A stretch of 64,000 bases of DNA, from sequence record MN642089.1; one strand, written 5' to 3'. Below, piece by piece: positions 4,453-43,815 of this stretch (positions are counted from its first letter, which is position 1; each line of letters opens with the position of its first letter). The position numbers were made by a program, and so were the translations under genes. Under the pieces are notes generated by a model, which worked only from the letters and a program-made list of their open reading frames with translations, was not told the origin of the DNA and ran no database searches. The DNA is from Klebsiella phage N1M2.

Positions 4453-4455
4453 AGA

Positions 4456-4479
4456 GTAGGGTGGCTTCGGCCACCCTAC
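4456..4479 (-). terminator. perfect GC-rich hairpin GTAGGGTGGC-TTCG-GCCACCCTAC downstream of homing endonuclease gene
   Basis: 10-bp perfect inverted repeat with TTCG tetraloop seen directly in sequence. Confidence 0.6.
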
Positions 4480-4494
4480 TCATTATGATCTTAA

Positions 4495-8416: not shown

Positions 8417-8431
8417 TAGAGAGATTCAATT

Positions 8432-12674: not shown

Positions 12675-12704
12675 CCCTACCTAGCCTTTGCGGGCTAGGT
12701 AGGG
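12675..12704. terminator. bidirectional terminator hairpin CCCTACCTAGCC-TTTGCG-GGCTAGGTAGGG between convergent genes
   Basis: 12-bp perfect stem. Confidence 0.65.
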
Positions 12705-23888: not shown

Positions 23889-23905
23889 TTTTAGTTGTAT
23901 CTTAT

Positions 23906-24333: not shown

Positions 24334-24355
24334 CAGGCTACCTTCGGGTAGCCTG
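24334..24355 (+). terminator. hairpin CAGGCTACC-TTCG-GGTAGCCTG
   Basis: 9-bp perfect stem, TTCG loop. Confidence 0.6.
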
Positions 24356-27303: not shown

Positions 27304-27330
27304 CTTTCAGCATAGCTGATAGGAATAGAA

Positions 27331-27906: not shown

Positions 27907-27914
27907 CGACAAAA

Positions 27915-27950
27915 TACCCCTACCCCTCCGTAAGGAAGGGTAGGGAGTAT
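27915..27950. repeat. member of conserved intergenic hairpin family (CCCTACCCCTCC-gtaa-GGAAGGGTAGGG)
   Basis: between convergent genes; related to 31874, 36245, 43763. Confidence 0.6.
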
Positions 27951-27963
27951 ACAATTAAATTTT

Positions 27964-28602
27964 TTATGGGTTTCTTGCTTTCAACTGATCTTCTAACTGT
28001 TTGATGTAAGCATACAGTTGTTGATTCTCAGTTGTCAGTTCTTCAATGCGAACTACGTCTGAAGGATTGCTAGTGATTGCTTGCTGACGTGTGTTTTCCC
28101 ATGCATCTGCCTGTTCTTTAGAAACATAACCACGAGTGGGCATTGTTCCTATAACAGTTCTCGGATCTTGGATACCAACAGAATTTTTGATGTACTCATT
28201 AAAATGAGCAATTACTGAATTGATACGATCTTTGAAAGCAGGTGGACACGCACCCAAATCAGAGATAATACAAACACGTTCATAGATCACACCATCAACT
28301 AGAGGGAATGATTTAAGATACGTCGATAAAAGATACGTATCAGGTCTTCCACGACTAGTCAGTACAATGACTACAGCTTCAGCTGCGATAGCTTGGTCCA
28401 GATAAGTTTGATACTGGTCTTGAGTAATACCAACCGGTTCAAACACGAGTTTGTAAATATCTTCTTTATCAGCTTGCATCTCAGGAATAGTGCGCACAGC
28501 TTCGACAGTATAGTAAATCTTTGGATCGACTACATTACTGAAAGGATTTTCAGCTTCGAAGGAACCTGCAGCCCAAATTGCTGGAATTAAGTTCTGACTC
28601 AT
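27964..28602 (-). CDS. hypothetical protein
   Basis: ORF. Confidence 0.5.
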   Translation of the reverse strand: MSQNLIPAIWAAGSFEAENPFSNVVDPKIYYTVEAVRTIPEMQADKEDIYKLVFEPVGITQDQYQTYLDQAIAAEAVVIVLTSRGRPDTYLLSTYLKSFPLVDGVIYERVCIISDLGACPPAFKDRINSVIAHFNEYIKNSVGIQDPRTVIGTMPTRGYVSKEQADAWENTRQQAITSNPSDVVRIEELTTENQQLYAYIKQLEDQLKARNP

Positions 28603-29930
28603 TCAGGAATTACCTTATCTTTGACAAATTGATAACGGGAGATCATCGTAAGCTTAACTTTAGATGAACGTCTCGTAATATACAGTTTGCCATCTTTGAT
28701 AACACGCTGAATACCTTTTGGAGGCATACCATCTGGAGTAACAATCTCACCAGCTGCGAGCATCTCTTCTAAGTCGAAGATAAACTTAACAGTGTCTTTA
28801 GACATCATACCTGCCTGAGAGTCAGTAGAAGGAATCAACTGGTAGTCAGGGAAGATGTCGCGGATCTTATCACGACCTGCATGGTTCTTAGGTTTCCCTA
28901 CGAAAGCCATGTGAGCCGACTTGTACAGATGAGGTACAATCTGAGTCGATTCTATGACGCTGTTCTCACCCCAAAGGCTTGCGTACTTCTTAGGTAAGTC
29001 TAAACCACCTTTAACGGTGTAGATTGGGGTAAACGTTGAACCAGCGATGGTTTCATTCTCAAGACCGATTTCATTCCAATAAGGAACAATCGCAAACTCA
29101 AGCGGGTTGAACAAGTCTGGGATAATATCAGCCCAGTCAGTTTCAGGATGCTTGGAGTGAGTGAGAATACACTCTTTGATCTTCTCGTACGTTTCTTCTT
29201 CTGCGTCATTAGGGTTGCCATAGTAAATGACAGTCCAATCTCCGCGGTTATAATGAGGAACGTTGATCAGGTCATAGATGTCAAAGGACATTACAATACG
29301 TGCAGTATACGGATTGGTATTATCACCAACTAGTTTCTGCACACGATCTTCGATCATCGCTGTGGTTTCATCAGCTAAGCGCTGAGCAACTTGTTTATAG
29401 TTCTTATCAGCAAGGAAATCGATATCGTCGATCGGGATAGGGTGAATAACATAGATTTCACGATATGGGAATTCGACACGGAAATATTCGTTAGCGAACC
29501 AGATCTTGAATTCTGATGTTACCTTACCTACAGTTAAAGTGAAGGAAATACTAGACGGCAACCAAATTGCGTTGTTGGTGACCATCACACTAACATCTTT
29601 CCATTCCCACCCTTTAGTGTAGGTTGCTTTAAGTAATTGGAGACAACCCTGAGAAGATTCGGTTGTTTTGTTTTGAGTAGCTTGGTCGTATAACCACTTA
29701 CACATGTTGAGAACTGGTGTTGCAAATTCCTGAGGAACTTTCTCATACATGGAAGTTTCAGAGACACCACGGAACACATGGAGATCTACTGGGTTATCGG
29801 GACCGAAATAAATATCAGGTTCTTTGGAGTAGGTCATCGTACTGTTGGTTAATTCACCAATGGGGGAAGTTGACCCATTGATCACCAAGTCATGAACCAC
29901 AGCAAAGCAACTATACAGAGTTGTTGACAT
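28599..29930 (-). CDS. hypothetical protein (443 aa)
   Basis: ORF. Confidence 0.55.
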   Translation of the reverse strand: MSTTLYSCFAVVHDLVINGSTSPIGELTNSTMTYSKEPDIYFGPDNPVDLHVFRGVSETSMYEKVPQEFATPVLNMCKWLYDQATQNKTTESSQGCLQLLKATYTKGWEWKDVSVMVTNNAIWLPSSISFTLTVGKVTSEFKIWFANEYFRVEFPYREIYVIHPIPIDDIDFLADKNYKQVAQRLADETTAMIEDRVQKLVGDNTNPYTARIVMSFDIYDLINVPHYNRGDWTVIYYGNPNDAEEETYEKIKECILTHSKHPETDWADIIPDLFNPLEFAIVPYWNEIGLENETIAGSTFTPIYTVKGGLDLPKKYASLWGENSVIESTQIVPHLYKSAHMAFVGKPKNHAGRDKIRDIFPDYQLIPSTDSQAGMMSKDTVKFIFDLEEMLAAGEIVTPDGMPPKGIQRVIKDGKLYITRRSSKVKLTMISRYQFVKDKVIPE

Positions 29931-29963
29931 ATTGCAACCTTTTAGCTATAATGAAACATATTT

Positions 29964-30389
29964 TTGAAAAGTGGTGGACACAGCATGAACTTCTTTCTGA
30001 GGGAACTAATCAATAGGATAATTAGTTACTTTATCCGAGTATCCAAAGGTGACTCATATGAAGACAAGATAGAACACTTGTTACGTAAGTCACTCTTATT
30101 CACATTTATGGCTTTGATTTTTGCTCTCACCATGACCTCTAAATATTTGGTAGCCAACTGGTACCTAGAAGATTTAGAGAAGAGTCTAAATAAAGTTGAC
30201 ACCTTCATGGTTGAGCAGCAAGATAACATGAACAGTCTTTTCCGTATTAACGGTGATCAGTTGAAACAGATCGATAAACTCACTCATGAGAATAACGACT
30301 TGGAGACTGATATCCGTACGTTACTCCACAACCAAGCTATCTTGGAAAAGGAGAACAAGGATCTACGGAAAAAGCTGGGTAAGAAATAG
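29964..30389 (+). CDS. hypothetical membrane-anchored coiled-coil protein
   Basis: TM segment then heptad-like C-terminus. Confidence 0.45.
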   Translation: MKSGGHSMNFFLRELINRIISYFIRVSKGDSYEDKIEHLLRKSLLFTFMALIFALTMTSKYLVANWYLEDLEKSLNKVDTFMVEQQDNMNSLFRINGDQLKQIDKLTHENNDLETDIRTLLHNQAILEKENKDLRKKLGKK

Positions 30390-30449
30390 TAAATTAAGAC
30401 AAGGATGTCCATTAGTTGTTACATCACAAATTGGCAGGTATAACTAACA

Positions 30450-31871
30450 ATGAACATTGTCTACTATATCGTAAGTTCTTTTATCAAAGATAAAAATGTC
30501 GGACTATCTGGCGGTCATGGCTATTCTTACGATCCCGGTAATGAGAGCAAGCGTAAGTTACAGAAAGACGTACCAACAGTTTATGGATACTACGTTAATG
30601 GTAACTATCAAAATATCGCAGTGGATCAGATCGATATTTATAATGGTCGTATCCTAAACCAACCAAATGAAGTTGACGCTTATCTCACTCATCTGGAACT
30701 GATCATTAATAAATGGTTAGAAGAGAAGAAAGATGGCAACAAACTTTTGGTAATTAGTAACTGTGTCAAAGCGCACAAGATGCTTGAGAAAAACAAGTGT
30801 CCTGATCAGTACAATGCAGAACTGTTCAAACGTGTTTATGCTTTGATTCAGGAACATAAGAAAGATATCATCCACGATATCGAGTATTATGCAAAAGGTG
30901 GTGAAGGTCCTAAGACAGCTCATAAACAATTGGAACTCGCAATTGCGTTGGCAGATTTACCCAATCCAGATGCTGTCACTCTTGACAAAATGGATGTTAA
31001 AGAGTATAAGAACCCAGAGATCGATTTCAATAAGTTGGTTACCGCAACTCGCTGGTATTTCAATACTGGTGATAAATCAACTTTCCATGATGTCGATGAA
31101 CAAGGGTATCGTCACTATACCTTTGGTCGGGTTGACCCGGATAAGAACTATTATGGTAAGGCAACACCAGATGTGTACTATTCTGCATTGTACACTAAAA
31201 CACCTATTAAGGTTTTGGATAAACTGTTCGCTTTCTGTCAGAAGAACAAGCCAAACCCTTACAACATCATGGCAGCCGGTAACTTGAACCACATCAAATC
31301 AAAAGAGATCGCTCGCGTTATCGATACGATCCCTGGAACATTTGGTAAGAAAGAGTTAGTTGCCCCAATGACGTTAGGTAATAATGAAGGTGCTAATCTG
31401 GTTGAATTCATTGACCCACCTGGATTATCTTACCGCATTCGTGATTTCCATGCCAAGCTGGATGCTATCTTCCGTTTCTGGAGAAAGCGTGATGAGAACG
31501 GGTGTTATCAGAAACATAAGTTTATTGATATCACTGAGTTGTTCTTTGTCAAGGATCCTAAAGGCAAATGGAAAATCCATCCGGACTTCACTAACAACAC
31601 TTTGAAAATGCCGGTGTCTATTGAAGCTCCTGGTTGTATTAAACCAGTTACGATCAATTTGAGTATGAAGTTCGATACTCCTGAACGTAATGCTTTAAAC
31701 AGTTTGATTGTGAATAAAGTAGAAGATATTAAAGTCTTCCTTGCTTTAGATTTCAGTGACGACTCTGGTGTTAGTTATTGCACCATTGTACATACTCCTG
31801 AATTTGATTACATTCATTCTAATAGCATCGCTAACCTTCGGGTTTACAGTTTGAAAGAGCTGGGCAAATAA
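30450..31871 (+). CDS. hypothetical protein (473 aa)
   Basis: ORF. Confidence 0.55.
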   Translation: MNIVYYIVSSFIKDKNVGLSGGHGYSYDPGNESKRKLQKDVPTVYGYYVNGNYQNIAVDQIDIYNGRILNQPNEVDAYLTHLELIINKWLEEKKDGNKLLVISNCVKAHKMLEKNKCPDQYNAELFKRVYALIQEHKKDIIHDIEYYAKGGEGPKTAHKQLELAIALADLPNPDAVTLDKMDVKEYKNPEIDFNKLVTATRWYFNTGDKSTFHDVDEQGYRHYTFGRVDPDKNYYGKATPDVYYSALYTKTPIKVLDKLFAFCQKNKPNPYNIMAAGNLNHIKSKEIARVIDTIPGTFGKKELVAPMTLGNNEGANLVEFIDPPGLSYRIRDFHAKLDAIFRFWRKRDENGCYQKHKFIDITELFFVKDPKGKWKIHPDFTNNTLKMPVSIEAPGCIKPVTINLSMKFDTPERNALNSLIVNKVEDIKVFLALDFSDDSGVSYCTIVHTPEFDYIHSNSIANLRVYSLKELGK

Positions 31872-31873
31872 AG

Positions 31874-31915
31874 CATACTCCCTTACCCTCCGCAAGGAAG
31901 GGTAAGGGTTATATG
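31874..31915. repeat. 42-nt conserved hairpin element CATACTCCCTTACCCTCC-gcaa-GGAAGGGTAAGGGTTATATG (identical copy at 36245-36286)
   Basis: exact repeat seen in sequence; bidirectional terminator position. Confidence 0.7.
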
Positions 31916-31927
31916 TTTGTTTCTTTT

Positions 31928-33016
31928 TTAGTTCATGAATTCATCTGCTAATTGAGCAAGATACTTACCTGCTTCTTCAGAGACTTCTTCTTTCGCTAAT
32001 TTGATTGCGTCTTTCACAATCGCTTTGCTGGTTTTCTTCTCACCTATCTGCAATTGAGAATCAAGAGTAATAACTGCATCACGATATCTTGCAGCGATAG
32101 CTCCCAGTTCTTTATCTACAGCAACAGCACGAGAAAGACTACGACGTTTACCTTCGTCTACAGTATCTTTGTTAGCTTCGTTCAGCTTATCCAAAGCAAC
32201 GGTAGCTGAAGCAAGAATAGATTGCATGTCGCCAGCTGCATCGATTAGATCACGTGTAGCCATAGTCAGATTACTAACTTTGGTGCCAGTGAAGTCAGCT
32301 TCCAGTCTATCCACCTTGGCTGCCTTTTCGATAGCTTCAATGCTGGTGTTCAGAGAGGTCAGTGTTTCACCATTAGGATCGATACGTTTGATCTCTTTAA
32401 TATGACCCGCTACGCCAGCTAATTGACGTTTAACGGTTCCAGAGATACGTTCTATCGTTTCACTCTGAATCTCTTCATGACGGGCTTCTGCTTCGTCAGT
32501 AAGAGCCACTTCCTTGATCTTCTGATTGATAATCATCTTGTCAGAACTAGACAGGCGTCTGATAATACGAATTATCTCGTGGTTACTACCATCGGTAGCT
32601 AAACCATCAATGCCTTTGGTCGCTAGTTGTTTAACTTGTCTGTTAACGACATCCCCTTCAAGAGATTTTTTAGCTTTAGTGAATTGTCTAGCTGTATCAC
32701 CATTAATCCAATCTCTGATGGCACGCAGTAAGTTCTTGATCCACTCATAAACTTTCTGACCACCTTTCTTAACGTTATCAAGGAAACTTTCCTGACCTTC
32801 TACTTCGACCAAGTCAATACCATGAAGTTTAAGTACGGTATCTGCATAGACAGCGTCGCCGCTCAATTCATTATCACCAACACTTTCTTTAGCCAATTCA
32901 GCCAGGCCATTGGTGATGGCGCAAGTGTGTTCAAACTCTGATTCCAGAGATTCAAAACCAGTAATGTGTTTCAGTTCCATTTTCATTTTACCATTGGAAA
33001 GGGGCCGTAGCCCCAT
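31928..33016 (-). CDS. hypothetical coiled-coil protein (start may be at downstream Met MKMELKH)
   Basis: ORF; first AUG lies inside GGGGC-tacg-GCCCC hairpin. Confidence 0.5.
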   Translation of the reverse strand: MGLRPLSNGKMKMELKHITGFESLESEFEHTCAITNGLAELAKESVGDNELSGDAVYADTVLKLHGIDLVEVEGQESFLDNVKKGGQKVYEWIKNLLRAIRDWINGDTARQFTKAKKSLEGDVVNRQVKQLATKGIDGLATDGSNHEIIRIIRRLSSSDKMIINQKIKEVALTDEAEARHEEIQSETIERISGTVKRQLAGVAGHIKEIKRIDPNGETLTSLNTSIEAIEKAAKVDRLEADFTGTKVSNLTMATRDLIDAAGDMQSILASATVALDKLNEANKDTVDEGKRRSLSRAVAVDKELGAIAARYRDAVITLDSQLQIGEKKTSKAIVKDAIKLAKEEVSEEAGKYLAQLADEFMN

Positions 33017-33019
33017 TAA

Positions 33020-35119
33020 TTAAAAGATATCACTCAGAGAATAATTCTTGAATGAGACATGATGATCAAAGTGTTCAGAATCTAAGTTATAACCTTCCAT
33101 CCCGACCATATTCATCAAGTTCATTTTACCAGCAACAGCTTTGGTGTTAGCTCCACCCGCCATCGTTAGCTTACCACCACCAAGGAGAATTTCAACTTGT
33201 TCCTTAGACCATTCCATAATGTCAATAGAACGAGAGGTGATGTTTTCTTCAGATCCAGTATCAAGATCAATAAGGTAAACGAAACATTCGGCATCCTGAC
33301 CTTTACGATAAATACGAGCAATGGTCTGTTTCAACTCATAAGAGCGGAATGGGGAGTTCATCAGAATCAACTGGTTACACATCAATAAAGGGTAACCTTC
33401 ACGGAGTGTGTTGAAAGTAGTAATTAGCGGGTTGACATTTGGATCATTCTCAACCTGTTTAATTACCTTCTCAATATCACCAGAGTTCTCGCCATGTACA
33501 GAAATGGAATCGATACCTTCAGATTCGAAGTAAGTCTCAAGTTCTTTGATAACTTCTATATAGGAAGTATAAATCGCAGTTTTCTTTTGAACAGACTGAA
33601 TCATCTCTGGAAGTTTGGCATGTCGTATAATGTCCCTGACAGCCTCCATACGGGCTCTTGATAAAACACGCCCTAATGCCTCACCACGAATCTTAAGTCC
33701 CACATACTTGACTGCAGACTTAATATGACGGAAGTATTTGAGGTCATCTCCCTTGAGTTCTTTTTCGATATCCTTTTCAACTGAATGAGCAAATTTAGAT
33801 TTGTCAGAATCAGTAAAGTTGTTGTACCCATGTTTCTGGAAGTAGTTCACAATCTCAATGTACTTATCAAGACGGGCTTCTTCTTTAGCATCACCTTCTA
33901 TCCAAGTGCGATACTGTTCAACAAACTTTTCCCAGTCGGAAATATATCGAGGCATGTGTTCATTATAGAACATAACACGATCTTCGATAAAGTCCATCAT
34001 CACTGCTCTGATATTATTCAGAGTGTATTTCTCAGCTCCTGGGAATTTAACAGGTACAACTTCAGGTTCAGGTGGTTCGTCCATCCCCTCGACTTTAGTA
34101 ATCGTAAATTTAATTCTACCCAAACGGTGAGCCAGCATCTGACTCAAGAATTCATTATCACGACCATACATCTTCAAGAAGTCAGTCTGAACATCCTTAT
34201 CAAAGAACTTATCGATAACAGTGAAGAGAGCAAAGGTTTCACGGCCTTGAGCTTTGATAGGTGTACCTGACATGAACAATACGTCTGAAACAAACTTATT
34301 AGAGCAGAGATCAATTAACCCCTGAGTTTGTTGTGACTTATATTCATTATAGTTGTGTGATTCGTCGACGATGACTTTGATGGGCTCTTTACCTTGCTTA
34401 GAGATAACGGAGATTAAACCATCGAATTCTCTACTACGGAGATTTTCTTTATAGATAATAAAGTAATCGGCGTCTGCATGGTTAAGCGGATCGGTCCCAT
34501 CTAAAGAAGTCCAGATCTTTGGAGTTTCTTTAAAATACTTAGTTGTCATCTCATTAACCCAAGGGGTCTGAACTAAGTGTTTTGGAACTACAATAATAGT
34601 TTTATAGGGAGAGATCATCTTGGACCAAACTAGGCTAGTGTATGTTTTACCACTACCTGGTTCAGCATCAAGTAAACAACCCCGTAACTGATACCCATAT
34701 TTTATACGAGAGTATCCTTCGAGAAACTCTTGTTGATCTGGGAAAGGTTTGAGTTTAAAACTTTTGAGTGCTTTATTAACATCGTAAGGCGGATAATCCT
34801 GGAATGTAGTTTCAATCCAGGTCTTGGCTTTGATCTCGTTATAGAGTTGATTGTATTTAAACATCCCAACCCGATAACGGTCTACCTGACGCTTGTTACG
34901 ATTAGTTGTAAAGTGGTCAAGAATCCATGCCAACTCCACCATAAAGAACTGGTGTATTTTGAAACGTCGGTTATTCAGTTTAGTGATCATTCGGCTAGCA
35001 ATTACAGATGTACCGAAGTTAGACTTAAGGTCCAACTCAAATGCATTTATATTAATACCGTTGATAACATAGTAGGAACCGACCTTTTCCACAGATGGCG
35101 AAAAGTTAAAGAATTCCAT
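33020..35119 (-). CDS. superfamily-2 (SNF2/DEAD-like) helicase
   Basis: Walker A DAEPGSGKTYTSL, motif II VIVDESHNY, helicase-C motif VI QTIARIYRKGQ. Confidence 0.7.
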   Translation of the reverse strand: MEFFNFSPSVEKVGSYYVINGININAFELDLKSNFGTSVIASRMITKLNNRRFKIHQFFMVELAWILDHFTTNRNKRQVDRYRVGMFKYNQLYNEIKAKTWIETTFQDYPPYDVNKALKSFKLKPFPDQQEFLEGYSRIKYGYQLRGCLLDAEPGSGKTYTSLVWSKMISPYKTIIVVPKHLVQTPWVNEMTTKYFKETPKIWTSLDGTDPLNHADADYFIIYKENLRSREFDGLISVISKQGKEPIKVIVDESHNYNEYKSQQTQGLIDLCSNKFVSDVLFMSGTPIKAQGRETFALFTVIDKFFDKDVQTDFLKMYGRDNEFLSQMLAHRLGRIKFTITKVEGMDEPPEPEVVPVKFPGAEKYTLNNIRAVMMDFIEDRVMFYNEHMPRYISDWEKFVEQYRTWIEGDAKEEARLDKYIEIVNYFQKHGYNNFTDSDKSKFAHSVEKDIEKELKGDDLKYFRHIKSAVKYVGLKIRGEALGRVLSRARMEAVRDIIRHAKLPEMIQSVQKKTAIYTSYIEVIKELETYFESEGIDSISVHGENSGDIEKVIKQVENDPNVNPLITTFNTLREGYPLLMCNQLILMNSPFRSYELKQTIARIYRKGQDAECFVYLIDLDTGSEENITSRSIDIMEWSKEQVEILLGGGKLTMAGGANTKAVAGKMNLMNMVGMEGYNLDSEHFDHHVSFKNYSLSDIF

Positions 35120-35136
35120 AGTAAGGACCTATTGAA

Positions 35137-36240
35137 ATGAACGAAAAAGAATTTGAATTCGAAAGTGATAACCACTATAACCTGTATGCTTTTGCGGAGC
35201 TGACTCAAAAGAAAGTATTTGAGGATTCAGCTTTTAAAGTTGAAAACCAGGATTACCACGATCGTTACAAAGTATCCTTGGGTGGGTACATTTGGTATGT
35301 CGCTGCTAAGTTCATTGGTAAATTCTGGCTGATGCTGGAACAATGTGAATACCAACAACTTGAAGCAATTATTGCTGAAGAAAAAGATGTTAAGGAAGGT
35401 CCATACATCCCTTATGAGAAGATCACTGGTGATGTTGATATGTCGGGTCCTTTCTATGAACTCGTTGGTGAGGATTTCATCAGCGTTGAAAATCGCATGA
35501 GCGGTTTGGTTAAAGCAGTAGCACAGAACATTCGTGAAACTGCAACAATCATCAATGAAGAAATGGAACTGGTCGCTAAAGACGGTGATATCGTTAAGGA
35601 CTTTGATGGTTATGTTACTTTTGACACCAAGCTGGGCCTCGACTTTAATGTAGGTCTGTGCTTTGACAAGATCAAACCAATTGCTGAAGATAATGCATCG
35701 GCTTGGATTGAACGCACTCCTATCACTCAAGAATATCTGGATACTTATTTCCCTAATGCGGGTAAACGTATTCTGGGTAAACTTGATCAAGTCAACTCTC
35801 TGGTTAAAGCACTGTTTGAATCTAAGACAGTTACTCGTAACCCTGAACTTGTTGAATATGCGGGCTGGTTGGTCACGGGTACGCTTGTGAACGCCTATCT
35901 TAATCAGAACGTAACTTACATCAGTTTCGGCGGTAAGGACAACTGGAGTGTTCTGGGTAAGGAAACTAAGAACAACCTGGCTTGCTTTAAATACCTGGAT
36001 CAGGAAGTCGAATACATTATCAAAATGTTGGATGGTATTGAGAAGACCGATGGTGTTGATATTTACTCTATGGATATTGATACCTTTGCTGTCTTCGGTC
36101 GTAACTTCGATAATAAAGTCGTTACGGAAGCATTGCAAGGTTATGTTCAGCCTCTGTTGGATAAATACTCCAAAGGTTTCGAGCAATGTTTAGCTACCCG
36201 TATGGCAATGATCGATAACCAACACTTCTTTAAAGCATAA
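35137..36240 (+). CDS. hypothetical protein
   Basis: ORF. Confidence 0.5.
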   Translation: MNEKEFEFESDNHYNLYAFAELTQKKVFEDSAFKVENQDYHDRYKVSLGGYIWYVAAKFIGKFWLMLEQCEYQQLEAIIAEEKDVKEGPYIPYEKITGDVDMSGPFYELVGEDFISVENRMSGLVKAVAQNIRETATIINEEMELVAKDGDIVKDFDGYVTFDTKLGLDFNVGLCFDKIKPIAEDNASAWIERTPITQEYLDTYFPNAGKRILGKLDQVNSLVKALFESKTVTRNPELVEYAGWLVTGTLVNAYLNQNVTYISFGGKDNWSVLGKETKNNLACFKYLDQEVEYIIKMLDGIEKTDGVDIYSMDIDTFAVFGRNFDNKVVTEALQGYVQPLLDKYSKGFEQCLATRMAMIDNQHFFKA

Positions 36241-36244
36241 CAAA

Positions 36245-36286
36245 CATACTCCCTTACCCTCCGCAAGGAAGGGTAAGGGTTATATG
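36245..36286. repeat. second identical copy of 42-nt conserved hairpin element
   Basis: identical to 31874-31915. Confidence 0.7.
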
Positions 36287-36288
36287 CT

Positions 36289-37068
36289 TTATGCTAATTT
36301 TTTAGCTTCAGTTATTTGCAGTTGAAGCACGCGAGTCAGTTCACTTAACTGGGCGAGCATTATCCCTGCGAAGTTAGCATTATCTACTAACTCACCAATC
36401 GCCATATTAAGGGATTCGGTTTCTTTAGGATTCAGAATAACTTCCGATTCTTCTATCTTAGCTTTCAGAAGGTTGGTAACGTAAATGACATTATCCATAC
36501 GCTTACTAACAACTTCAACATCACGCGCATTCAAAGTCTGCACGACCGTATTAAAGTTATTAAGGATATCTGTTGCCGAACCAAAGTTAGGATACAGTTC
36601 ATTCAGGCTACGAGTATAAGCCCCGGTATCTTTCATGAAGTTCTGGAAAGTCTCACGAGATTTAGAAATGAGAACCAGATCGTTCACATTGCGAATGCTA
36701 AAAGGAACTTGTCCAGTAGCTGCCGCTTTTTTAATACCGCGGTATACATTATCAGCTTGAGAATCAACCATTTTGATAATAGGAACTGCGTGGAGAACAA
36801 ACTCTACGAAATCCTTAAAGGACCAAACTGATGGGTTAAAGAATACTGGAGATGGGATATGTTTGATAGCAGCAGAAAAGTACACATTCTGATTAGCTAA
36901 ATCTTTCCATACTTCCCCACCTTTAACGGTGTGAATTGACTTATTAAAGTTCTTAGCGTTAAAGGCATCAAACCCAACACTGAGTTCTTTAAAGAAAGAA
37001 GTAAAGCGCTCGCCGACTGAAAGGGCTTCGTTGCCACTTACATCGGTATTTAATAATTCGGTAGACAT
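36289..37068 (-). CDS. hypothetical protein
   Basis: ORF. Confidence 0.5.
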   Translation of the reverse strand: MSTELLNTDVSGNEALSVGERFTSFFKELSVGFDAFNAKNFNKSIHTVKGGEVWKDLANQNVYFSAAIKHIPSPVFFNPSVWSFKDFVEFVLHAVPIIKMVDSQADNVYRGIKKAAATGQVPFSIRNVNDLVLISKSRETFQNFMKDTGAYTRSLNELYPNFGSATDILNNFNTVVQTLNARDVEVVSKRMDNVIYVTNLLKAKIEESEVILNPKETESLNMAIGELVDNANFAGIMLAQLSELTRVLQLQITEAKKLA

Positions 37069-37135
37069 GCTATGGCAAACTCCACTAGTGTGTGTTATTG
37101 AAACGTTTCATAACATTTAAATAAAAGGTATTACA

Positions 37136-38605
37136 ATGCTGACTGCATTTAACTTCTTGAAAGACTACGGCGCTGAATCCAACCTTCAAATTGGTTTGAA
37201 CGTCTCTCCTATCTTTGACCTTCTGACCACCACTATGATCAAAGGTAAAGATGGGGTTTGGTACATGAACGGCGGTCTGATGCCGATCAACGGTTTGGCA
37301 GGTGGTAACAACACCCAGAAAACCGGTAAGACTGTAAAGGACGTTGCTAAGTTACTCCATCGTTTCCAACACTCCATTATTCTGTATGGTGATACTGAAT
37401 CTACACTTGACGTTTCTCGTCTGGCTGAAGAAGTCGATCGCCTGTTTGGTATTCCTGGGTACTTCGAAGAAAATATCGAAGATGTCCGTTTCCACTACAT
37501 GCCTAACTCTGCTGGTATTGATGGGACCGAACTGCACAATAAAGTAATTGAAATCTATAAGACTATTACTGCATTGTCAGAATCCAAAGATAAAGAAGAA
37601 CAGGCCGCGTATAAGTCTCTGTTCCTGGATACTCCATTCTGGTCACAGAAAGCTAATAAGCACGTTCAGGTTATGCAACCTATCCTGTTCATTTGTGACT
37701 CTATCTCTGAAGTTCTGTTTGATAACTTGATGTTCAAACAGTTCGATGAAGGTGAGATGGATGAAGGTGGTAAAAAGCGTACTCGTGATATGGAGATCGG
37801 TAACCTGCGTCGTATCCTGATGACAGATACCTGTATCCTTGGTCCGCGTGTTGGTCTGCGTTCTTACTGGATCGCTCAGTCTGCTGATGTTATCAACATG
37901 GATGGTAAGCCAAAAGAGAAAGACTCTACCTTCCTGCGTCATAACAAAAAGCTGGCTGCTCCTAAAGCAATGCTTAAGTTACCGCACATCGGTATTGAGA
38001 TCATCAAAGGTCAGGTTCTTAAACAACCAGATCACTCTGTGACTTATCCTCGTGGTAAAGATTCTACTATCTCTTCCAATGCTAAGTCTAACCCAGAACT
38101 GGTTCAGTATTACACCACGGTCTTCCGTAACAAATCTGGTAGCTCCGGTGGTGATATTAGCTTCGTTGCTGGTCAGGCAGAAGGTATCCTTGAATACCTG
38201 TCAATGTATGATGCATTGAAAGATAACAAATACTTTGGTTTGGAAGGTTCGGCTATTCGTCATAGCTGTGCTCTTATGCCAGAAGTAAGCATTATGCGTA
38301 CGACAGTTCGTGAACTCCTGGAAGGCCCAGAAGCTAATCACAAACTGCAACGTGCAATTGAGCTGTGCTATCACATCTGGCACATGCAGACTTTCTGGGA
38401 TAACTTCCCTGAAGAATGGCGTCTTACTCCATCTGAGATCTATGCTAAAGGCAAAGAACAAGGATTGGATTGGGATGATGTTCTTGAAAATACCATCTAC
38501 TACTGGCACGATAACCCAGAGATCAAGAAACATACATTAACCGTTTACGAACTGATGGAAATCATCGTGAATGGTAAGAAACCATATTGGAAGGAAAAGA
38601 AATAA
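37136..38605 (+). CDS. hypothetical protein (489 aa)
   Basis: ORF. Confidence 0.55.
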   Translation: MLTAFNFLKDYGAESNLQIGLNVSPIFDLLTTTMIKGKDGVWYMNGGLMPINGLAGGNNTQKTGKTVKDVAKLLHRFQHSIILYGDTESTLDVSRLAEEVDRLFGIPGYFEENIEDVRFHYMPNSAGIDGTELHNKVIEIYKTITALSESKDKEEQAAYKSLFLDTPFWSQKANKHVQVMQPILFICDSISEVLFDNLMFKQFDEGEMDEGGKKRTRDMEIGNLRRILMTDTCILGPRVGLRSYWIAQSADVINMDGKPKEKDSTFLRHNKKLAAPKAMLKLPHIGIEIIKGQVLKQPDHSVTYPRGKDSTISSNAKSNPELVQYYTTVFRNKSGSSGGDISFVAGQAEGILEYLSMYDALKDNKYFGLEGSAIRHSCALMPEVSIMRTTVRELLEGPEANHKLQRAIELCYHIWHMQTFWDNFPEEWRLTPSEIYAKGKEQGLDWDDVLENTIYYWHDNPEIKKHTLTVYELMEIIVNGKKPYWKEKK

Positions 38606-38606
38606 A

Positions 38607-38969
38607 ATGAATGACTTTAGCTACGACTATTCGGTACTTGTAATCGCAGAACCTGACTTCCTCAACAAAGGCAAGGATTGCGAAGCATATCGAGAGAAGT
38701 TAATGAACTTCTTAGAGAAGCGAGCTGGGGAGAGTACGCTGCGCGCAATCAGTATCACTGGTAGCTACGGTCTCCCCATGGAAACTCAGATTGAAGTCGA
38801 TAGTCGGAACAAGACTTCTTTCGTTAAATCGCTTGATGATCAACTGCTTCAATTTAATGAGATCGTGATAATCACGAACTTTGAGAATGATAGCTACATT
38901 GATGCATTGAGTATCCGTGCTGCTGAACTCTCAAAAACCTTAACTATCTATGGTTACGAGACTAAGTGA
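38607..38969 (+). CDS. hypothetical protein
   Basis: ATG 38607 with GGAAGGA SD directly after upstream stop. Confidence 0.45.
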   Translation: MNDFSYDYSVLVIAEPDFLNKGKDCEAYREKLMNFLEKRAGESTLRAISITGSYGLPMETQIEVDSRNKTSFVKSLDDQLLQFNEIVIITNFENDSYIDALSIRAAELSKTLTIYGYETK

Positions 38970-39646
38970 TGAAAAACCGGAAAGAGATAGAAAGTGATAT
39001 TCTTGCATTAGCTAAGAAGTTCACTCTTGGTGGTGGAAACCACCAACTCTATTCCGAACTGTTTGGGCGTCTTGATGACGCCCAGTTTGCTAAGTTCTGG
39101 AATAGCATTTGCGATAACAAGTTTATTCCGATGTTTGTTGACAACTACAATGTGAAAGAAGGCATTAACTACGATCACATGGTTAAGGTTGCTGCGGAAT
39201 ACAACATCCCGTTGGAACAACAGTTGGTTATCACTGACCCAGATACTGGTTTGACTTTCACCACACCAGAAACTGCGTTGGTTGGTTTTGCTGAAGCACG
39301 TAAGCAACGTCAGTTACAAGCTAAGAAGTTTGGCGCATCTAAGCACGACTATGAAACTGAAGACTTGACTGGTCAACCTACTGGCGATTCAAAAGCTGGC
39401 GGTATCTCTAACCCAGAGATTCAGGTTCTTCTTTCTTTAGGTCTTCCTACTTTAGCTAAAGAGTTGGCAGACGTTCGTGGTGGTGATGCTGGCGCTTATC
39501 GTGCATATAAGAATGACATCCTGACCTCTGGCCAGGCAACTACTGAATCTGCGTTGACACGTGGTACCGGTGTTAAGTCACTTCAAACAGCACACTACCT
39601 TCTGTTAGGCCAGCACATTGATAACAACCTGAATTCGAGAGACTAA
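38966..39646 (+). CDS. hypothetical protein
   Basis: ORF, TGATG overlap. Confidence 0.5.
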   Translation: MMKNRKEIESDILALAKKFTLGGGNHQLYSELFGRLDDAQFAKFWNSICDNKFIPMFVDNYNVKEGINYDHMVKVAAEYNIPLEQQLVITDPDTGLTFTTPETALVGFAEARKQRQLQAKKFGASKHDYETEDLTGQPTGDSKAGGISNPEIQVLLSLGLPTLAKELADVRGGDAGAYRAYKNDILTSGQATTESALTRGTGVKSLQTAHYLLLGQHIDNNLNSRD

Positions 39647-40122
39647 TGGAACAGCAAATTAGTTACGATCCGATTGTTCAGTTGATCAGTTATGTAGCTG
39701 AAGAGTTACATCAGGAAATCGTTATTAACCAGGATAGTTCTGAGTTCTGGAAAAAGGCTCAGGATTATATCTTTGACAATAGCGTAGCTTCTGTACGTGA
39801 AGGCATAAACAACTTATCTGAAGGTATCGGTGAATCACCAGACCTTTATAGTTATCTTAGTAGTTTGGTCTTCAGGACTTTCTCCCAACCTTTCACAGCT
39901 CCTGCCCTTGAAAGTTTCTCAAAAGGGTTTGATATGGTAGCTGGCGATGCTTTCTTCCGTGATGGCTTTGGTTTCAAAGCTAGTGAGATGACCAAGGTAG
40001 AACAACTACTATTGTTCATTACCGTTCATCGTAATCACATTCAGCTTGCCTTTATGGAAGCAGAAGAGGAAGCAGAGAAACAGCGTATTGAAGAAGCTCT
40101 ACGGCAAAGAAAAAGGCAATAA
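39646..40122 (+). CDS. hypothetical protein
   Basis: ORF, TAATG overlap. Confidence 0.5.
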   Translation: MEQQISYDPIVQLISYVAEELHQEIVINQDSSEFWKKAQDYIFDNSVASVREGINNLSEGIGESPDLYSYLSSLVFRTFSQPFTAPALESFSKGFDMVAGDAFFRDGFGFKASEMTKVEQLLLFITVHRNHIQLAFMEAEEEAEKQRIEEALRQRKRQ

Positions 40123-40128
40123 CCGACG

Positions 40129-40857
40129 ATGAACATTGAAGTCTATACCGAAATGGATTCGTTGTTTGACGCTCGCCGTGGCATCATTATTAAATGTGCT
40201 TTGGAATCTGGCAATAAACGTTTCGACTGGAACAGGAACTTTAAAGAGATCTATGCTCGACGTCGATTCGATTACTTTCATCAACCTGAATTAGGTATTA
40301 CTGATGAAGGGTTTAAAGCCCGGTATGCTCAGCGGTCCATAGCTGACTTTGCTGATGAAACACAAGCATACATCATTCCAAGTAATCTCATATACAACAT
40401 CTTTAAGATAGTACGTGAGATTGAGTTCGGTGTAGGTCAGATCATCTCAGTGTCTAAGTTTAACTTAACGGTTAATCTGTATCCTTATGTATTGACTCAA
40501 GATCTGACTGACGAACTAGCATCTGTAATCCGTGGAGCGGTTCCGTTTAACATTGGTCTATCCTTTGTAAACATACCGTATGAAAATTTAACTCCTGCGG
40601 TTTTACACGCTTATCAGTATTGCTTCATTTATGACTTCCTGACTGGTGAACATCGTAAAGCATATTGGGAAAATTATGTCCCAGCTGCAAATACGAATAC
40701 CAAGTTCATAGTTCCAGATGTAATACTGAATAAGGAACTTCCAGAAGAAATGAGAAGCGAAAAGCCTATCGATCTAATTGGAAAAATGAATGCTACTCAA
40801 GGTGGTAAAATAACCTGGGTCCCATACTCAAAAACCATATTCGATTATAAAGAATAA
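40129..40857 (+). CDS. hypothetical protein
   Basis: ORF. Confidence 0.5.
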   Translation: MNIEVYTEMDSLFDARRGIIIKCALESGNKRFDWNRNFKEIYARRRFDYFHQPELGITDEGFKARYAQRSIADFADETQAYIIPSNLIYNIFKIVREIEFGVGQIISVSKFNLTVNLYPYVLTQDLTDELASVIRGAVPFNIGLSFVNIPYENLTPAVLHAYQYCFIYDFLTGEHRKAYWENYVPAANTNTKFIVPDVILNKELPEEMRSEKPIDLIGKMNATQGGKITWVPYSKTIFDYKE

Positions 40858-40863
40858 GGTCAC

Positions 40864-40890
40864 CCTAGGAGCCCCGCAAGGGCTCCTAGG
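40864..40890. terminator. hairpin CCTAGGAGCCC-cgcaa-GGGCTCCTAGG between convergent genes
   Basis: 11-bp perfect stem. Confidence 0.65.
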
Positions 40891-40905
40891 AGTGTTTGTT
40901 GTCTA

Positions 40906-41508
40906 TTAAGATTCTGGATCGAATTCTTCATCGTCATCTTCAGGAGCTTCGGTTGTATTTACCGTTACTTCCATATCGTCGTCGTCAAAGGTAGATTCAA
41001 TCTCCTTAGCGTTAACGATCTGACGACCTTGGTACAGTTCGTCTTCTTTGATCTCGTCATCTGGATCTTCTATACGGATAATAGGAGCCAATGGATCAAG
41101 TACGAATGCCTGATTACCATAAGTTGGAATCACAAGCTTGCCTGCAGCTACTTCATTAAGAGCGTTAACGAAGGTTGCAAAGTTAGCTCGGTTGTCTTCC
41201 AATTCTCTGTCCTTGAGTCTCTCTTTGCGATCGTCACGAACGGTCTTCTCAAGTTGAGCAAGAATGGTATTGATGGAATCCAACAGTTTAGGGTTGTTAG
41301 GTTTATTAATAAAAGTCTGAGTAGCGATATCTAACAACAGGGTACGTTGCTTCTGAATAATACCAACTAACTCATTCTCAGCTTCTTTGCTCTGAGGACC
41401 TTTAAGAACCTTATTGATTTCAGCAATCAAAGCGTCCTTATCGGTTACGGTTTTCAATTTCTCATCAGACGGCGGGGCCGGATGAATTTCATCATCATGG
41501 TCAAACAT
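40906..41508 (-). CDS. hypothetical acidic protein
   Basis: ORF with GGAG SD; Asp/Glu-rich termini. Confidence 0.5.
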   Translation of the reverse strand: MFDHDDEIHPAPPSDEKLKTVTDKDALIAEINKVLKGPQSKEAENELVGIIQKQRTLLLDIATQTFINKPNNPKLLDSINTILAQLEKTVRDDRKERLKDRELEDNRANFATFVNALNEVAAGKLVIPTYGNQAFVLDPLAPIIRIEDPDDEIKEDELYQGRQIVNAKEIESTFDDDDMEVTVNTTEAPEDDDEEFDPES

Positions 41509-41540
41509 AATTACTCCATATTCTTTAGCGACTATTATAT

Positions 41541-41570
41541 TTCAAACAAATATTATCAAAGTAGATACGG
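41541..41570 (+). promoter_or_regulatory. promoter-like motif copy (TTCAAACAAATATTATCAAAGTAGATACGG) with TATAG box at ~41595
   Basis: family consensus. Confidence 0.5.
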
Positions 41571-41617
41571 TGGAAATCTAATTTAATAATATACGTTATA
41601 GTCTTGAGGTAAATAAG

Positions 41618-42169
41618 ATGTTCTTTGAAAAGCTATTAAACAAGATTCCTTTCTTCCGTAATCGTCGCATCAAGAAGATTAAGGAGGATCTCGCTGAGAT
41701 TAAACATGACTTCACTGAGGGTCATTTTAATGAGCAATTTATCAGTGGTCTTCACAATATCCTAAATAGTTCCTTAATCGACTTCTCAGACGATTTAGTG
41801 GCGACTTCATTAAATGATATTACGACGTATTCAAAAACGTCTATATCGGCTCTGAAGCTCGCAGAAAAACCGATTATATCGAAAGCAACTCTTGGACTTT
41901 CCCCGTTGTTAAGCATGTCAAGAACAACCGGGTATTTCTCAGAGTGGTATTCTAACGAAGACTCTTTGTTAGAATTTATTAGCGTGATGAAACTGTATTT
42001 GCAAGCCCACACTTGGCAAATTGCAAACCCTGACTACCAGAATCAGGAGAAGGTTTCTGAACTTATTAATAGCATGAATCCTGAGTTTTTGGACTCACTA
42101 TTATATAGACTATTATTAGAAGATCTGGTCAGTATAATAACATTCTACGTAGAGAGCAAATATGATTGA
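41618..42169 (+). CDS. hypothetical protein
   Basis: ORF. Confidence 0.5.
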   Translation: MFFEKLLNKIPFFRNRRIKKIKEDLAEIKHDFTEGHFNEQFISGLHNILNSSLIDFSDDLVATSLNDITTYSKTSISALKLAEKPIISKATLGLSPLLSMSRTTGYFSEWYSNEDSLLEFISVMKLYLQAHTWQIANPDYQNQEKVSELINSMNPEFLDSLLYRLLLEDLVSIITFYVESKYD

Positions 42170-42572
42170 GAAGAATAAGGGCCTGTCGTTCAGCAAGAAT
42201 AAGAACTTTGTTCCTGCTGAACAGTTAACGGATGTACCAAGCCGTCTTTTCAGAAAGATCGTGGATGTACTGAACATTAACAATGCAAAGTGGAAAACGT
42301 ATTTAGATGATTACTTACGTTGGCAGCACCCTGACGATTCCGGTCCGGCAGCTGAAGTTAAACGTCAGCGCTCGACCGCCTTGGGGAATTTGCAAAGTAC
42401 CTTGTTTTACTCCAAGAACTTAACTTGGAACAAATTGTTGGTAGCTCTAAAGATCTGTCGAGTTACGAAGATCCGTGTGATCTTTGAAATAGAAACAGAA
42501 TCTGGTGAGCAACACACCATCACTGAAACTACAGTTCTTCGTAAATCACCAAAGGGCACTGTAGACGAATAA
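42162..42572 (+). CDS. hypothetical protein
   Basis: ORF. Confidence 0.5.
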   Translation: MIEKNKGLSFSKNKNFVPAEQLTDVPSRLFRKIVDVLNINNAKWKTYLDDYLRWQHPDDSGPAAEVKRQRSTALGNLQSTLFYSKNLTWNKLLVALKICRVTKIRVIFEIETESGEQHTITETTVLRKSPKGTVDE

Positions 42573-42578
42573 CGGATG

Positions 42579-42604
42579 TGTTACCTTACCTTCGGGTAAG
42601 GTAA
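42579..42604 (+). terminator. hairpin GTTACCTTACC-TTCG-GGTAAGGTAAC followed by T-rich tract
   Basis: 11-bp perfect stem; shares CCTTACC/GGTAAGG core with repeat family. Confidence 0.65.
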
Positions 42605-42641
42605 CCTCTTTTAAATAATTTATTTTTTTTTAGGATTAATT

Positions 42642-43757
42642 ATGTCAACTTTAGTTCAAAGAGCAAGTTTGTTTGAAGGGGTAGACCTAAATAACAAACT
42701 ACAAGAAGCTAGCCGTTCAATGACAGAAACGGTATCTGGTTTAACTAACCAATTAGTCAATCCATTTAAAGTAGTCACTGAAGCTACTGAATCCGGTGTT
42801 GCGTTAATTAGTGAGAAACAGTCGCAGATTGCTTCTAATATTAGTGCTTATAAATCTCAGGCTCTAACCGGCATCAACAATGCTATCAAAGGTCTTACCG
42901 GTGGATTGTTAAATATCGGTGACATCGGTAGTATCGTTACCTATCAAGATGGGTTTAAAGTTAATACTGATGAGTTACTACGTTTAGGTAGTAAAGGTCT
43001 TGGCTTTAACATCAACTCCATGCGTGATTTGAAACAGCAAATCGGTAATGGGTTTATTGATGAACTTGATAAAATGACCGGTGGGTTGGCTTCTGGTTTA
43101 TTTTACGCTGATGGAACCAAGTTACACATTGCTGATGGTTGGGAAATGAATATGGGGATGTCTCTCATTGACTTCCTCGGAAAAGACGACCCTGATGGAT
43201 TTGGGACCATTGTTAACGTAGCAGCCATGAATAGCATCCTTAATACGATGCTTGATAAAACCATTGGGTATGGAATGTGGCAAGGTTATGGTAATTACGG
43301 AAACATGTATCTGTTCCAATCCGATTACCATGACCAACTTATCGATTCATTAGGTTTGGCAATCGGGCGTGGTGATTGTAAATCTATTCAAGTCATCTTT
43401 GATATCATCAAACAAGAAGGTATCAATAAAGTTAAAGCTAAGTATCCTGAATTGATTGAACAGATGCTTTCTAACTTTACATTTAGCTCTGACGAAGATG
43501 CTAGTAATTATCAAGAGATCAAAGTCCTGTTACTTCAAGTTATCGAAACTGTAGGCGGTAAAGACTGGTACCAGTATCCGACTTCATTTGGTCCAGCAAC
43601 CAACTTAGCTTTAGTTAACTTTATTTCTGATGACGCCAAACTTCTATTAGGTGAAGAAACTAATTTGGTTCCTTTATTATGTTCATCCGGAATCTTCATT
43701 GATCAATCAGCTCCTGATGTCTTCATGCAAGATTTCCCTAAAGCAGTTAAATTCTAA
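42642..43757 (+). CDS. hypothetical protein (371 aa)
   Basis: ORF. Confidence 0.5.
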   Translation: MSTLVQRASLFEGVDLNNKLQEASRSMTETVSGLTNQLVNPFKVVTEATESGVALISEKQSQIASNISAYKSQALTGINNAIKGLTGGLLNIGDIGSIVTYQDGFKVNTDELLRLGSKGLGFNINSMRDLKQQIGNGFIDELDKMTGGLASGLFYADGTKLHIADGWEMNMGMSLIDFLGKDDPDGFGTIVNVAAMNSILNTMLDKTIGYGMWQGYGNYGNMYLFQSDYHDQLIDSLGLAIGRGDCKSIQVIFDIIKQEGINKVKAKYPELIEQMLSNFTFSSDEDASNYQEIKVLLLQVIETVGGKDWYQYPTSFGPATNLALVNFISDDAKLLLGEETNLVPLLCSSGIFIDQSAPDVFMQDFPKAVKF

Positions 43758-43762
43758 ACAAG

Positions 43763-43804
43763 CATAACCCTTACCCCTCCTCACGGAGTGGGTAAGGGAA
43801 TATG
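43763..43804. repeat. member of conserved hairpin family (CATAACCCTTACCCCTCC-tcac-GGAGTGGGTAAGGGAATATG)
   Basis: between convergent genes. Confidence 0.6.
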
Positions 43805-43815
43805 TATTATTTTTT

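Follow-up and report, generated by a model that had tools for sequence, protein, structure and literature searches.

The stretch of Klebsiella phage N1M2 considered here (MN642089.1; 64,000 nt, hereafter the window, with positions counted from its first nucleotide and its strands given as + and -) contains six junctions at which genes converge, and four of them hold members of one family of GC-rich hairpins. Each of the four copies lies in a gap of 48-59 nt, both stop codons included, with the hairpin starting 8-11 nt past the stop codon of the + gene and ending 11-19 nt ahead of the stop codon of the - gene. In a megablast comparison, positions 27000-45000 match the Serratia phages vB_SmaM-Sureiya and vB_SmaM-Yubaba over their full length at ~86% identity, and match Shewanella phage SXP01, Pseudomonas phage OBP, Pantoea phage Survivor, and Edwardsiella phage pEt-SU more weakly. 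The relatives of the window are OBP-like (Petsuvirus) jumbo phages of 255-285 kb, in a phiKZ-related lineage, and they encode multisubunit RNA polymerases (RNAPs); annotations of RNAP beta subunits are orthologous to window positions 53278-59234. Sureiya, which is 98.9% identical to Yubaba over 20 kb, is the nearest annotated relative, and its full genome (256 kb, 268 annotated features, ~93% coding and ~7% intergenic) was used for comparison. The whole window aligns with Sureiya positions 130126-64726 in reverse orientation, and gene boundaries called from open reading frames (ORFs) were corrected against this alignment and the Sureiya annotation. Four further candidate convergent junctions (853/820, 8827/9111, 17635/17655, and 63399/63506) were rejected, since the annotation and the alignment disagree with them.

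A preliminary description of this DNA had placed hairpins at 27915, 31874, 36245, and 43763, and a hairpin is present at each of these places (J1, J2, J3, and J5 in Table 1). Between the copies at 31874-31915 and 36245-36286 there is no difference over exactly 42 nt, and the identity ends at both edges. The flanks ATACT and TATATG, described as common to all four copies, are shared by J2 and J3; J1 is instead flanked by AAAATA and AGTATAC, and J5 by CATAA and AATATG. J1 is a single-T/single-A variant (CCCCTACCCCTCC..GGGTAGGG), in which the RNA of the + strand contains a C.A mismatch and the RNA of the - strand a U.G wobble, followed on the - strand by the tail TATTTTGTCG; J5 reads in full GCATAACCCTTACCCCTCCTCACGGAGTGGGTAAGGGAATATG. 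A search for the degenerate arm pattern CCCTWMCCC..GGGKWAGGG returned 3 matches in the window against 0.00 expected (100 shuffles), with the copy at 27917 falling outside the pattern as a single-T/single-A variant, and the 8-9-nt arm sequences have no further occurrence anywhere in the 64 kb. A scan for perfect stems with loops of 3-8 nt overlooks the family because of its internal mismatch, and sliding-window folding was used instead. When the whole spacers between stop codons were folded as RNA, the eight folds (four elements on two strands) had energies of -23.0 to -27.3 kcal/mol, with z-scores of -5.1 to -6.7, and none of 200 shuffles was as stable as the family elements on either strand. 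The hairpin family is real and far beyond chance, and its copies are stable on both strands, as a single hairpin serving two convergent genes has to be.

Table 1. Hairpins and early-promoter matches in the window. Hairpins of the family come first; energies are for the two strands of the inter-stop spacer.
Feature	Position (strand)	Hairpin	Parts	Adjacent genes	Energy (kcal/mol)
J1, family, single-T variant	27914..27950	27917-27945	left arm CCCCTACCCCTCC 27917-27929; loop GTAA 27930-27933; right arm GGAAGGGTAGGG 27934-27945	27331-27906(+) and 27964-28602(-)	-24.6 / -27.1
J2, family	31874..31915	31880-31908	CATACT 31874-31879; left arm CCCTTACCCTCC 31880-31891; loop GCAA 31892-31895; right arm GGAAGGGTAAGGG 31896-31908; tail TTATATG 31909-31915 (TATG 31912-31915), then TTTGTTTCTTTTTT	30450-31871(+, RNase H-like) and 31928-33016(-, internal head protein in OBP)	-24.6 / -24.5
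J3, family	36245..36286	36251-36279	CATACT 36245-36250; left arm 36251-36262; loop GCAA 36263-36266; right arm 36267-36279; TTATATG 36280-36286	35137-36240(+) and 36289-37068(-, virion structural protein in OBP)	-23.0 / -26.1
J5, family	43763..43804	43768-43798	CATAA 43763-43767; left arm CCCTTACCCCTCC 43768-43780; loop TCAC (GTGA on - strand) 43781-43784; right arm GGAGTGGGTAAGGG with bulged T 43785-43798; AATATG 43799-43804; - strand tail TTATGCTTGTTT	42642-43757(+) and 43816-46020(-), both virion structural in relatives	-27.3 / -27.1
J4, non-family	40864..40890		perfect 11 bp, CCTAGGAGCCC-CGCAA-GGGCTCCTAGG	convergent junction 40857/40906	
Partly related hairpin	12675..12704		CCCTACCTAGCC-TTTGCG-GGCTAGGTAGGG; in common with family: outer CCCTACC/GGTAGGG only	convergent junction 12654/12725	
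One-way terminator candidate, non-family	42580..42605 (+)		GTTACCTTACC-TTCG-GGTAAGGTAAC, then T9 run	co-directional + genes 42572/42642	
One-way terminator candidate	24334..24355 (+)		CAGGCTACC-TTCG-GGTAGCCTG, then TTATTCGG..T8	co-directional + genes 24326/24387	
One-way terminator candidate	4454..4481 (-)		GAGTAGGGTGGC-CGAA-GCCACCCTACTC, then TATG on - strand; flanks CATAAT/CTATG	co-directional - genes 4452/4495	
Early-promoter match	6703-6726 (+)				
Early-promoter match	7720-7743 (+)				
Early-promoter match	17694-17717 (+)				
Early-promoter match	19916-19939 (+)				
Early-promoter match	23905-23928 (+)				
Early-promoter match	25545-25568 (+)				
Early-promoter match	41540-41563 (+)				

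The placement of the family follows the ends of genes. All 14 copies found in the window (4) and, with a regular expression, in the 256 kb of Sureiya (10) are intergenic, in sequence of which ~7% is non-coding; the alternative that such elements occur equally inside genes, against which the preliminary description had asked to be judged, finds no intragenic copy in its favor. Eight of the Sureiya copies lie between convergent genes and two between co-directional ones. The earlier statement that the family marks every convergent junction is too broad, since the hairpin at 40857/40906 is unrelated to it and the one at 12654/12725 only partly related, but a strong hairpin of some kind does occur at 6/6 convergent junctions of the window. 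The hairpin at 12675 is of the same functional class as the family. In Sureiya, similarly, a hairpin of -23.5 to -38.2 kcal/mol is found at 18/18 annotated convergent junctions, against roughly 13% of co-directional junctions with a comparable one (~1 in 8, an estimate from counts). Hairpins of -20 kcal/mol or lower are mostly intergenic in general, at 16/20 in the window and 42/50 in Sureiya.

The anatomy of the family can be read from 40 distinct copies in at least nine phages, whose arms were parsed by regular expression rather than by MAFFT alignment, in which the T/TT indel was misaligned. A 5' flank that is usually (A/G)CATA(A/C/T)(T) leads into an outer stem of 9 bp, in which C3-5-T(T)ACCC pairs with GGGT(A)A-G3-5; a one-nucleotide irregularity separates this from an inner stem of 3 bp (TCC/GGA), and the 3' flank is (T/A)(T/G)TAT(A)TG followed by YTT(G)TT, so arranged that the reverse complement of the element reads nearly the same. 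The 5' arm consists of C and T only and the 3' arm of G and A only in 4/4 window copies and 40/40 family copies, as in phiKZ-type terminators. Where the 5' arm has T, the 3' arm has A, and where it has TT, the 3' arm has AA, in 40/40 copies, which indicates that pairing is maintained, and of the 32 loops with four nucleotides, 28 conform to GNRA on one of the two strands (about 6% by chance), a bias that favors a folded single strand over a duplex binding site. The imperfection between the stems is retained in 39/40 copies, either as a C.A mismatch (U.G on the other strand), as a one-nucleotide bulge, or as a C-G pair with a bulged U or A; in the bulge form, the other strand can fold into a register-shifted continuous helix with one wobble. 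Among the non-family convergent hairpins of Sureiya, 9/10 are perfect stems of 11-14 bp, and the imperfection is hence specific to the family.

A TATG box often lies downstream of the stem. On the terminator-oriented sides of Sureiya hairpins, TATG starts no more than about 7 nt past the stem end in 32/64 cases, against 5% of intergenic 14-nt windows, and the bases that follow are (T/C)TT(G/T)TT, for a consensus of TATG-YTT(G)TT. The window copies have TATG within 7 nt of the stem on 6/8 sides, J1 lacking it on either side. TATG also follows one-way hairpins that have no upstream CATA, and it is therefore not merely the palindromic partner of the 5' flank.

Both the presence of these hairpins and the sequence of the family are conserved across phages. 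At the five orthologous junctions J1-J5, a hairpin is found in 35/35 cells of a comparison of seven phages; J4 carries an unrelated hairpin in all seven, OBP, Survivor, and pEt-SU have a hairpin of a third type at J1, OBP also deviates at J3, and the remaining cells hold the family. The stem CCCT(T)ACCC-TCC/GGA-GGGT(A)AGGG recurs in at least nine related phages, sometimes at non-orthologous junctions, as with the variant CCCCTACCCCTCCGTAAGGAAGGGTAGGGAGTATA, which is identical at J1 of the window and J5 of OBP, phages that share only about 75% identity even in conserved genes. In exact-pattern scans of IMG/VR, the outer stem, the inner TCC/GGA, and the CATA/TATG flanks occur together almost only in jumbo-phage contigs of 220-285 kb, among them pEt-SU, with at least 6 copies, and OBP. 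The occurrence of the same variants at non-orthologous sites of such divergent phages implies that the stem sequence is either constrained or copied between sites, and it bears out the earlier suggestion of conservation beyond simple stem formation, as the same stem recurs across genera. Coincidence with rearrangement breakpoints, which had also been raised, is not seen at J1-J5, where synteny holds in 7/7 phages.

Copying between sites is further suggested by comparing the pair J2 and J3 within and between genomes. In the window the two agree at all of 42 nt, each with a left arm of 12 nt; in Yubaba the agreement extends over 43 nt, and each left arm, with an extra C, is 13 nt long. Copies inside one genome thus resemble each other more closely than they resemble their orthologues in the other genome, the hallmark of gene conversion. 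The elements also change from within, for the J2 orthologues of window 31880-31908 in the otherwise nearly identical Sureiya (L001, 19866-19895) and Yubaba (L287, 5869-5898) differ by 5 changes in 9 nt, CTCC-GCAA-GGAA in Yubaba against TTCC-TTGC-GGAA in Sureiya, or an inversion of the loop plus one substitution. This flip reads as a small hairpin-mediated inversion, by which the elements would rearrange quickly inside. Hairpin-associated small inversions, or loop flip-flop, are known from chloroplast non-coding DNA, where the loop and sometimes the inner stem occur in either orientation, as GCAA and TTGC do here; the present case differs in being a phage terminator candidate. The uniformity of the stems is probably due to a constraint on terminator sequence across phiKZ-like phages combined with concerted evolution, through gene conversion and loop inversion.

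Terminators of this general build have been mapped in two members of the phiKZ lineage. Oxford Nanopore (ONT)-cappable-seq of phiKZ located 133 regions of termination; the motif BCCYCCCCHWWDGGGRRGGBYTTATKYYGT, a hairpin followed by TTAT, is common to most of the intrinsic terminators predicted there, and six overlapping bidirectional terminator regions lie between convergent genes (Putzeys et al., 2024; PMC10914365). In 201phi2-1, 132 termination sites were identified, 15 of them bidirectional, with a main motif that is phiKZ-like, and eight terminators proved functional in a two-reporter trap in Pseudomonas chlororaphis and were also active with the host RNAP alone (Poppeliers et al., 2024; PMC11512511). 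Read directly, the first 50 kb of phiKZ DNA show the arrangement CATAA-GCCCTCCC-loop-GGGAGGGC-TTATG-YYGT, and its palindromic form occurs at 3/4 convergent junctions (25195/25242, 34853/34962, and 43754/43798), for instance as GCATAAGCCCTCCCGCAATGGGAGGGCATTATG. The family shares with phiKZ the order of CATAA, C-rich 5' arm, short loop, G-rich 3' arm, and TTATG-YYGT, and with both phages the location just past stop codons, the palindromic form between convergent genes, and a lineage that encodes its own multisubunit RNAPs. It departs from phiKZ in its longer stem, with two parts of 9 bp (CCCT(T)ACCC) and 3 bp (TCC) in place of the 7-8-bp CCYCCCC stem, in its conserved mismatch, wobble, or bulge, in its strong GNRA loop bias, and in a tail that is often TTATATG or AGTATG rather than TTATG; it is moreover known here from sequence alone, and the phiKZ terminators from mapped 3' ends. 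Because stem sequence, length, spacing, and internal irregularity differ, no site in the window matches the exact phiKZ motif at 24 or more of its 30 positions. The family is most likely the Petsuvirus-branch member of the known phiKZ kind of terminator, and not a new kind of element.

The distribution of early promoters suggests what such elements would be needed for. The OBP early-promoter consensus, in the form in which it is quoted in a later article (TTTYARRYAKATATTATYWWADTG; PMC7058600), matches the window seven times at 3 mismatches or fewer, each time on the + strand, where 0.06 matches would be expected, and the corresponding sites of Sureiya lie on one strand in 26/26 cases. Early transcription hence appears to run in one direction only, and with early sites confined to one strand, convergent junctions are the places at which the early strand meets a strand of mostly virion genes. 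Several of the window sites lie 12-126 nt downstream of one-way hairpins (at 7644, 17644, 19767, and 25496), forming terminator-promoter modules.

Taken together, it is highly probable that the family consists of compact bidirectional transcription terminators of the phiKZ type, placed between convergent genes and homogenized by gene conversion. The bidirectional terminators of the preliminary description are thus the best-supported reading, given exclusively intergenic placement, stability on both strands, and an architecture at which 3' ends have been mapped in phiKZ. Transcripts of either converging gene would finish in a hairpin of -23 to -27 kcal/mol, C-rich in its 5' arm and G-rich in its 3' arm, and in a UAUG-YUUGU tail rich in U and A; hairpin and tail together would bring about release of the phage's own multisubunit RNAPs, in either direction. 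As a near-palindrome, one element of 30-42 nt could serve both directions within a gap of 48-59 nt, and such a two-way stop would keep transcription of the early strand (+ in the window) from colliding with that of the structural genes (-).

Several observations weigh against this interpretation. The data searched contained no transcripts of a Petsuvirus, this phage included, so that termination is inferred by analogy, and the formation of RNA 3' ends here and the choice of polymerase that would be stopped are inferences too. In phiKZ itself, 3' ends from ONT-cappable-seq presumably cannot, on their own, separate termination from exonuclease trimming back to a hairpin. No canonical U-tract directly follows the stem, and a terminator consensus scan flags the four elements on the - strand only, with weak T-rich tails such as TATTTTGTCG and AGTATGTTTG. 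Runs of T6-8 do occur (27955-27963, 31920-31929, 36298-36303, and 43812-43819), but on the + strand only and beginning 10-17 nt 3' of the stems, and they are the complement of A-runs right after the TAA stops (TAAAAAA...) of the - strand genes. Finally, stability alone does not explain an invariant stem sequence or an irregularity kept in 39/40 copies. Most convergent junctions of Sureiya, and J1 and J5 of the other phages, show the same arrangement of T-runs, and in Sureiya, runs of T5 or more are commoner on early-strand terminator sides (9/17) than on the others (7/47). The family resembles canonical Rho-independent and bidirectional terminators in having a GC-rich hairpin past the stop codon, one hairpin for two convergent genes, and an A-run on one side with a T-run on the other, and differs from them in that, apart from the weak T-rich tails on the - strand, no U-tract is seen at 0-2 nt from the stem and a T6-8 run lies 10-17 nt away, on one strand, and in that the sequence of the stem, not only its structure, is conserved across genera. 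Rfam 15 has no match at gathering score in the whole window.

The invariance of the stem might be explained if the phage polymerase, or a factor, recognized specific bases beyond the stability of the stem, a tentative proposal that we regard as rather unlikely and that would extend termination by these hairpins rather than exclude it. The two-part stem, its conserved irregularity, and the GNRA loop could together form the surface that the polymerase or an RNA-binding factor of the phage recognizes, and the retention of stem sequence across genera and at non-orthologous junctions, together with an irregularity that other hairpins of the same genome replace with perfect stems, points in this direction. 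In 23/40 copies, though, the irregularity amounts to a mere G.U wobble on one of the two strands, gene conversion could keep the sequence identical without any reader, and 201phi2-1 terminators work with host RNAP alone.

A related suggestion concerns the tail. Late promoters of phiKZ have TATG as their essential core, its G being +1 (PMC4666361), and in a 2026 structure it is the beta-lobe of GP123, a core subunit, and not the sigma-like GP68, that binds TATG on the non-template strand (PMC12809450). The box in the terminator tail thus consists of the same four nucleotides that a core subunit contacts in the late promoter, an identity not seen stated in the articles consulted. In bacteria, the pause at terminators is supplied by the U-tract. 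If the non-virion RNAP (nvRNAP) read the TATG box 4-7 nt past the hairpin during elongation, as a promoter-like pause and release or a stop-and-restart signal, the contact with the core polymerase could replace the U-tract pause or couple the stop to a restart; this is a doubtful conjecture at present. TATG is enriched tenfold after hairpins and is also part of the phiKZ terminator motif, and TATG/CATA is rarer in the window than base composition predicts (513 observed against about 679, with no dinucleotide control), which would fit avoidance of a functional signal. J1, however, lacks TATG on both sides, and the presence of TATG shows no association with an upstream early-promoter site (7/17 with one and 25/47 without, p = 0.57).

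It is improbable, in our view, that the hairpins serve instead in the protection or processing of RNA 3' ends, with the polymerase reading through and the hairpin blocking 3'-5' exonucleases or marking a site of cleavage. Bacterial REP (repetitive extragenic palindromic) hairpins serve mRNA stability, and very stable hairpins right past stop codons with no adjacent U-tract are what this explanation would predict; methods that map 3' ends would, moreover, presumably record protection and termination alike. The contrast between 18/18 convergent and about 13% of co-directional junctions nevertheless points to the prevention of head-on read-through, and 201phi2-1 terminators of the homologous type do stop transcription in the two-reporter trap. 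Protection and termination are in any case not mutually exclusive.

The preliminary description had also entertained a mobile REP-like element, and the spread of a REP-like or miniature inverted-repeat transposable element (MITE) into intergenic gaps by transposition now appears very improbable. Several near-identical copies, including the pair identical over 42 nt, the same variant at different junctions of different phages, and the GTAG/CTAC of the single-T variant would all suit a mobile repeat. GTAG is missing, though, from the TT/AA variant, the hairpin is present at all five orthologous junctions in 7/7 phages with no empty sites, and only 10 copies occur in the 256 kb of Sureiya. Target-site duplications are absent from the copies, as are terminal repeats other than the palindrome itself, their flanks differ apart from CATA and TATG, and their similarity is better explained by gene conversion. 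No REP-associated tyrosine (RAYT), Y1, or IS200-like transposase is listed among the 268 annotated Sureiya features, a survey of annotation without a hidden Markov model search. A scan of 185,579 bacterial genomes listed at least 130 matches, at 120 or more loci; those listed are unrelated hairpins, 0/130 have the inner stem together with the CATA/TATG flanks, and no matching REP family is among them. The family does resemble REP elements and bacterial interspersed mosaic elements (BIMEs) as a set of short (30-40 nt), imperfect, GC-rich extragenic palindromes, often at convergent ends and homogenized within a genome; it is unlike them in its low copy number and in having no annotated RAYT, no presence/absence variation, no conserved flanking tetranucleotide, and no host counterpart among the matches listed. 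Paired CCCTTACCCCCCGTCGGGGTAAGGG-type hairpins 190-335 nt apart were found in betaproteobacterial metagenome-assembled genomes (Comamonadaceae/Rhodoferax and others; L167, L216, L219, L220, L238, and L246), and these look like an unrelated bacterial repeat family that shares the outer 9-mer by chance.

A palindrome acting as DNA, whether as the site of a dimeric protein, a cruciform, or a signal for recombination or replication, has in its favor the perfect dyad symmetry of the outer arms and the exchange of sequence between copies, but it is hardly credible given GNRA in 28/32 loops and tolerated G.U and C.A positions, which indicate a folded single strand, a placement that follows the ends of transcription units and not replication or packaging landmarks, and the coincidence of the same architecture with RNA 3' ends in phiKZ.

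As phiKZ-type terminators, the elements of the family bear on termination by the two non-canonical phiKZ-like RNAPs, knowledge of which has so far consisted of 3'-end maps and a motif in two Pseudomonas phages. The CATAA-hairpin-TTATG architecture would now extend to the OBP/Petsuvirus branch, with phages of Serratia, Shewanella, Pantoea, Edwardsiella, and Pseudomonas fluorescens, in an otherwise ordinary feature of the genome. Two further points are added, namely the use in this branch of a distinct, strongly sequence-constrained stem whose copies evolve in concert, and the presence of the late-promoter core TATG in the putative terminator tail. Nature provides a series of variants for the study of polymerase recognition, in which stems are perfect or irregular, loops are flipped, and TATG is present in the tail or missing from it, and compact two-way terminators are possible parts for engineering. 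Were recognition of specific bases to hold, these nucleus-forming jumbo phages would have a termination code private to them and not generic hairpins.

Among the remaining hairpins of the window, the looser relatives listed in the preliminary description were said to lie between convergent genes, which holds for 12675; those at 42579, 24334, and 4456 have co-directional neighbors and are candidates for one-way terminators. The J4 hairpin belongs to a separate conserved family, of the CCYAGGAGCCC type, with the tail AGTGTTTGTTGT and without TATG, and it is kept at the orthologous junction in seven phages (the window, L001, L287, L046, L047, L288, and L289) with compensatory changes on both arms.

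The - strand gene at 33020-35119 encodes a 699-aa helicase of the SNF2 family (Pfam SNF2-rel_dom, ResIII, and Helicase_C), which is annotated as virion-associated in OBP and SXP01; a packaged SNF2 ATPase together with a virion RNAP resembles the NPH-I termination factor of poxviruses. A separate "transcript termination protein" is annotated in Sureiya at record positions 247975-249519. Elsewhere, window positions 4387-5383 and 6720-9142 have no counterpart in Sureiya, and the - strand gene at 5344-6489 is uninterrupted, while its Sureiya orthologue for ribonucleotide reductase beta (record positions 120841-123142) is split by an insert of ~960 bp with a winged-helix ORF, possibly an intron or a homing-endonuclease insertion.

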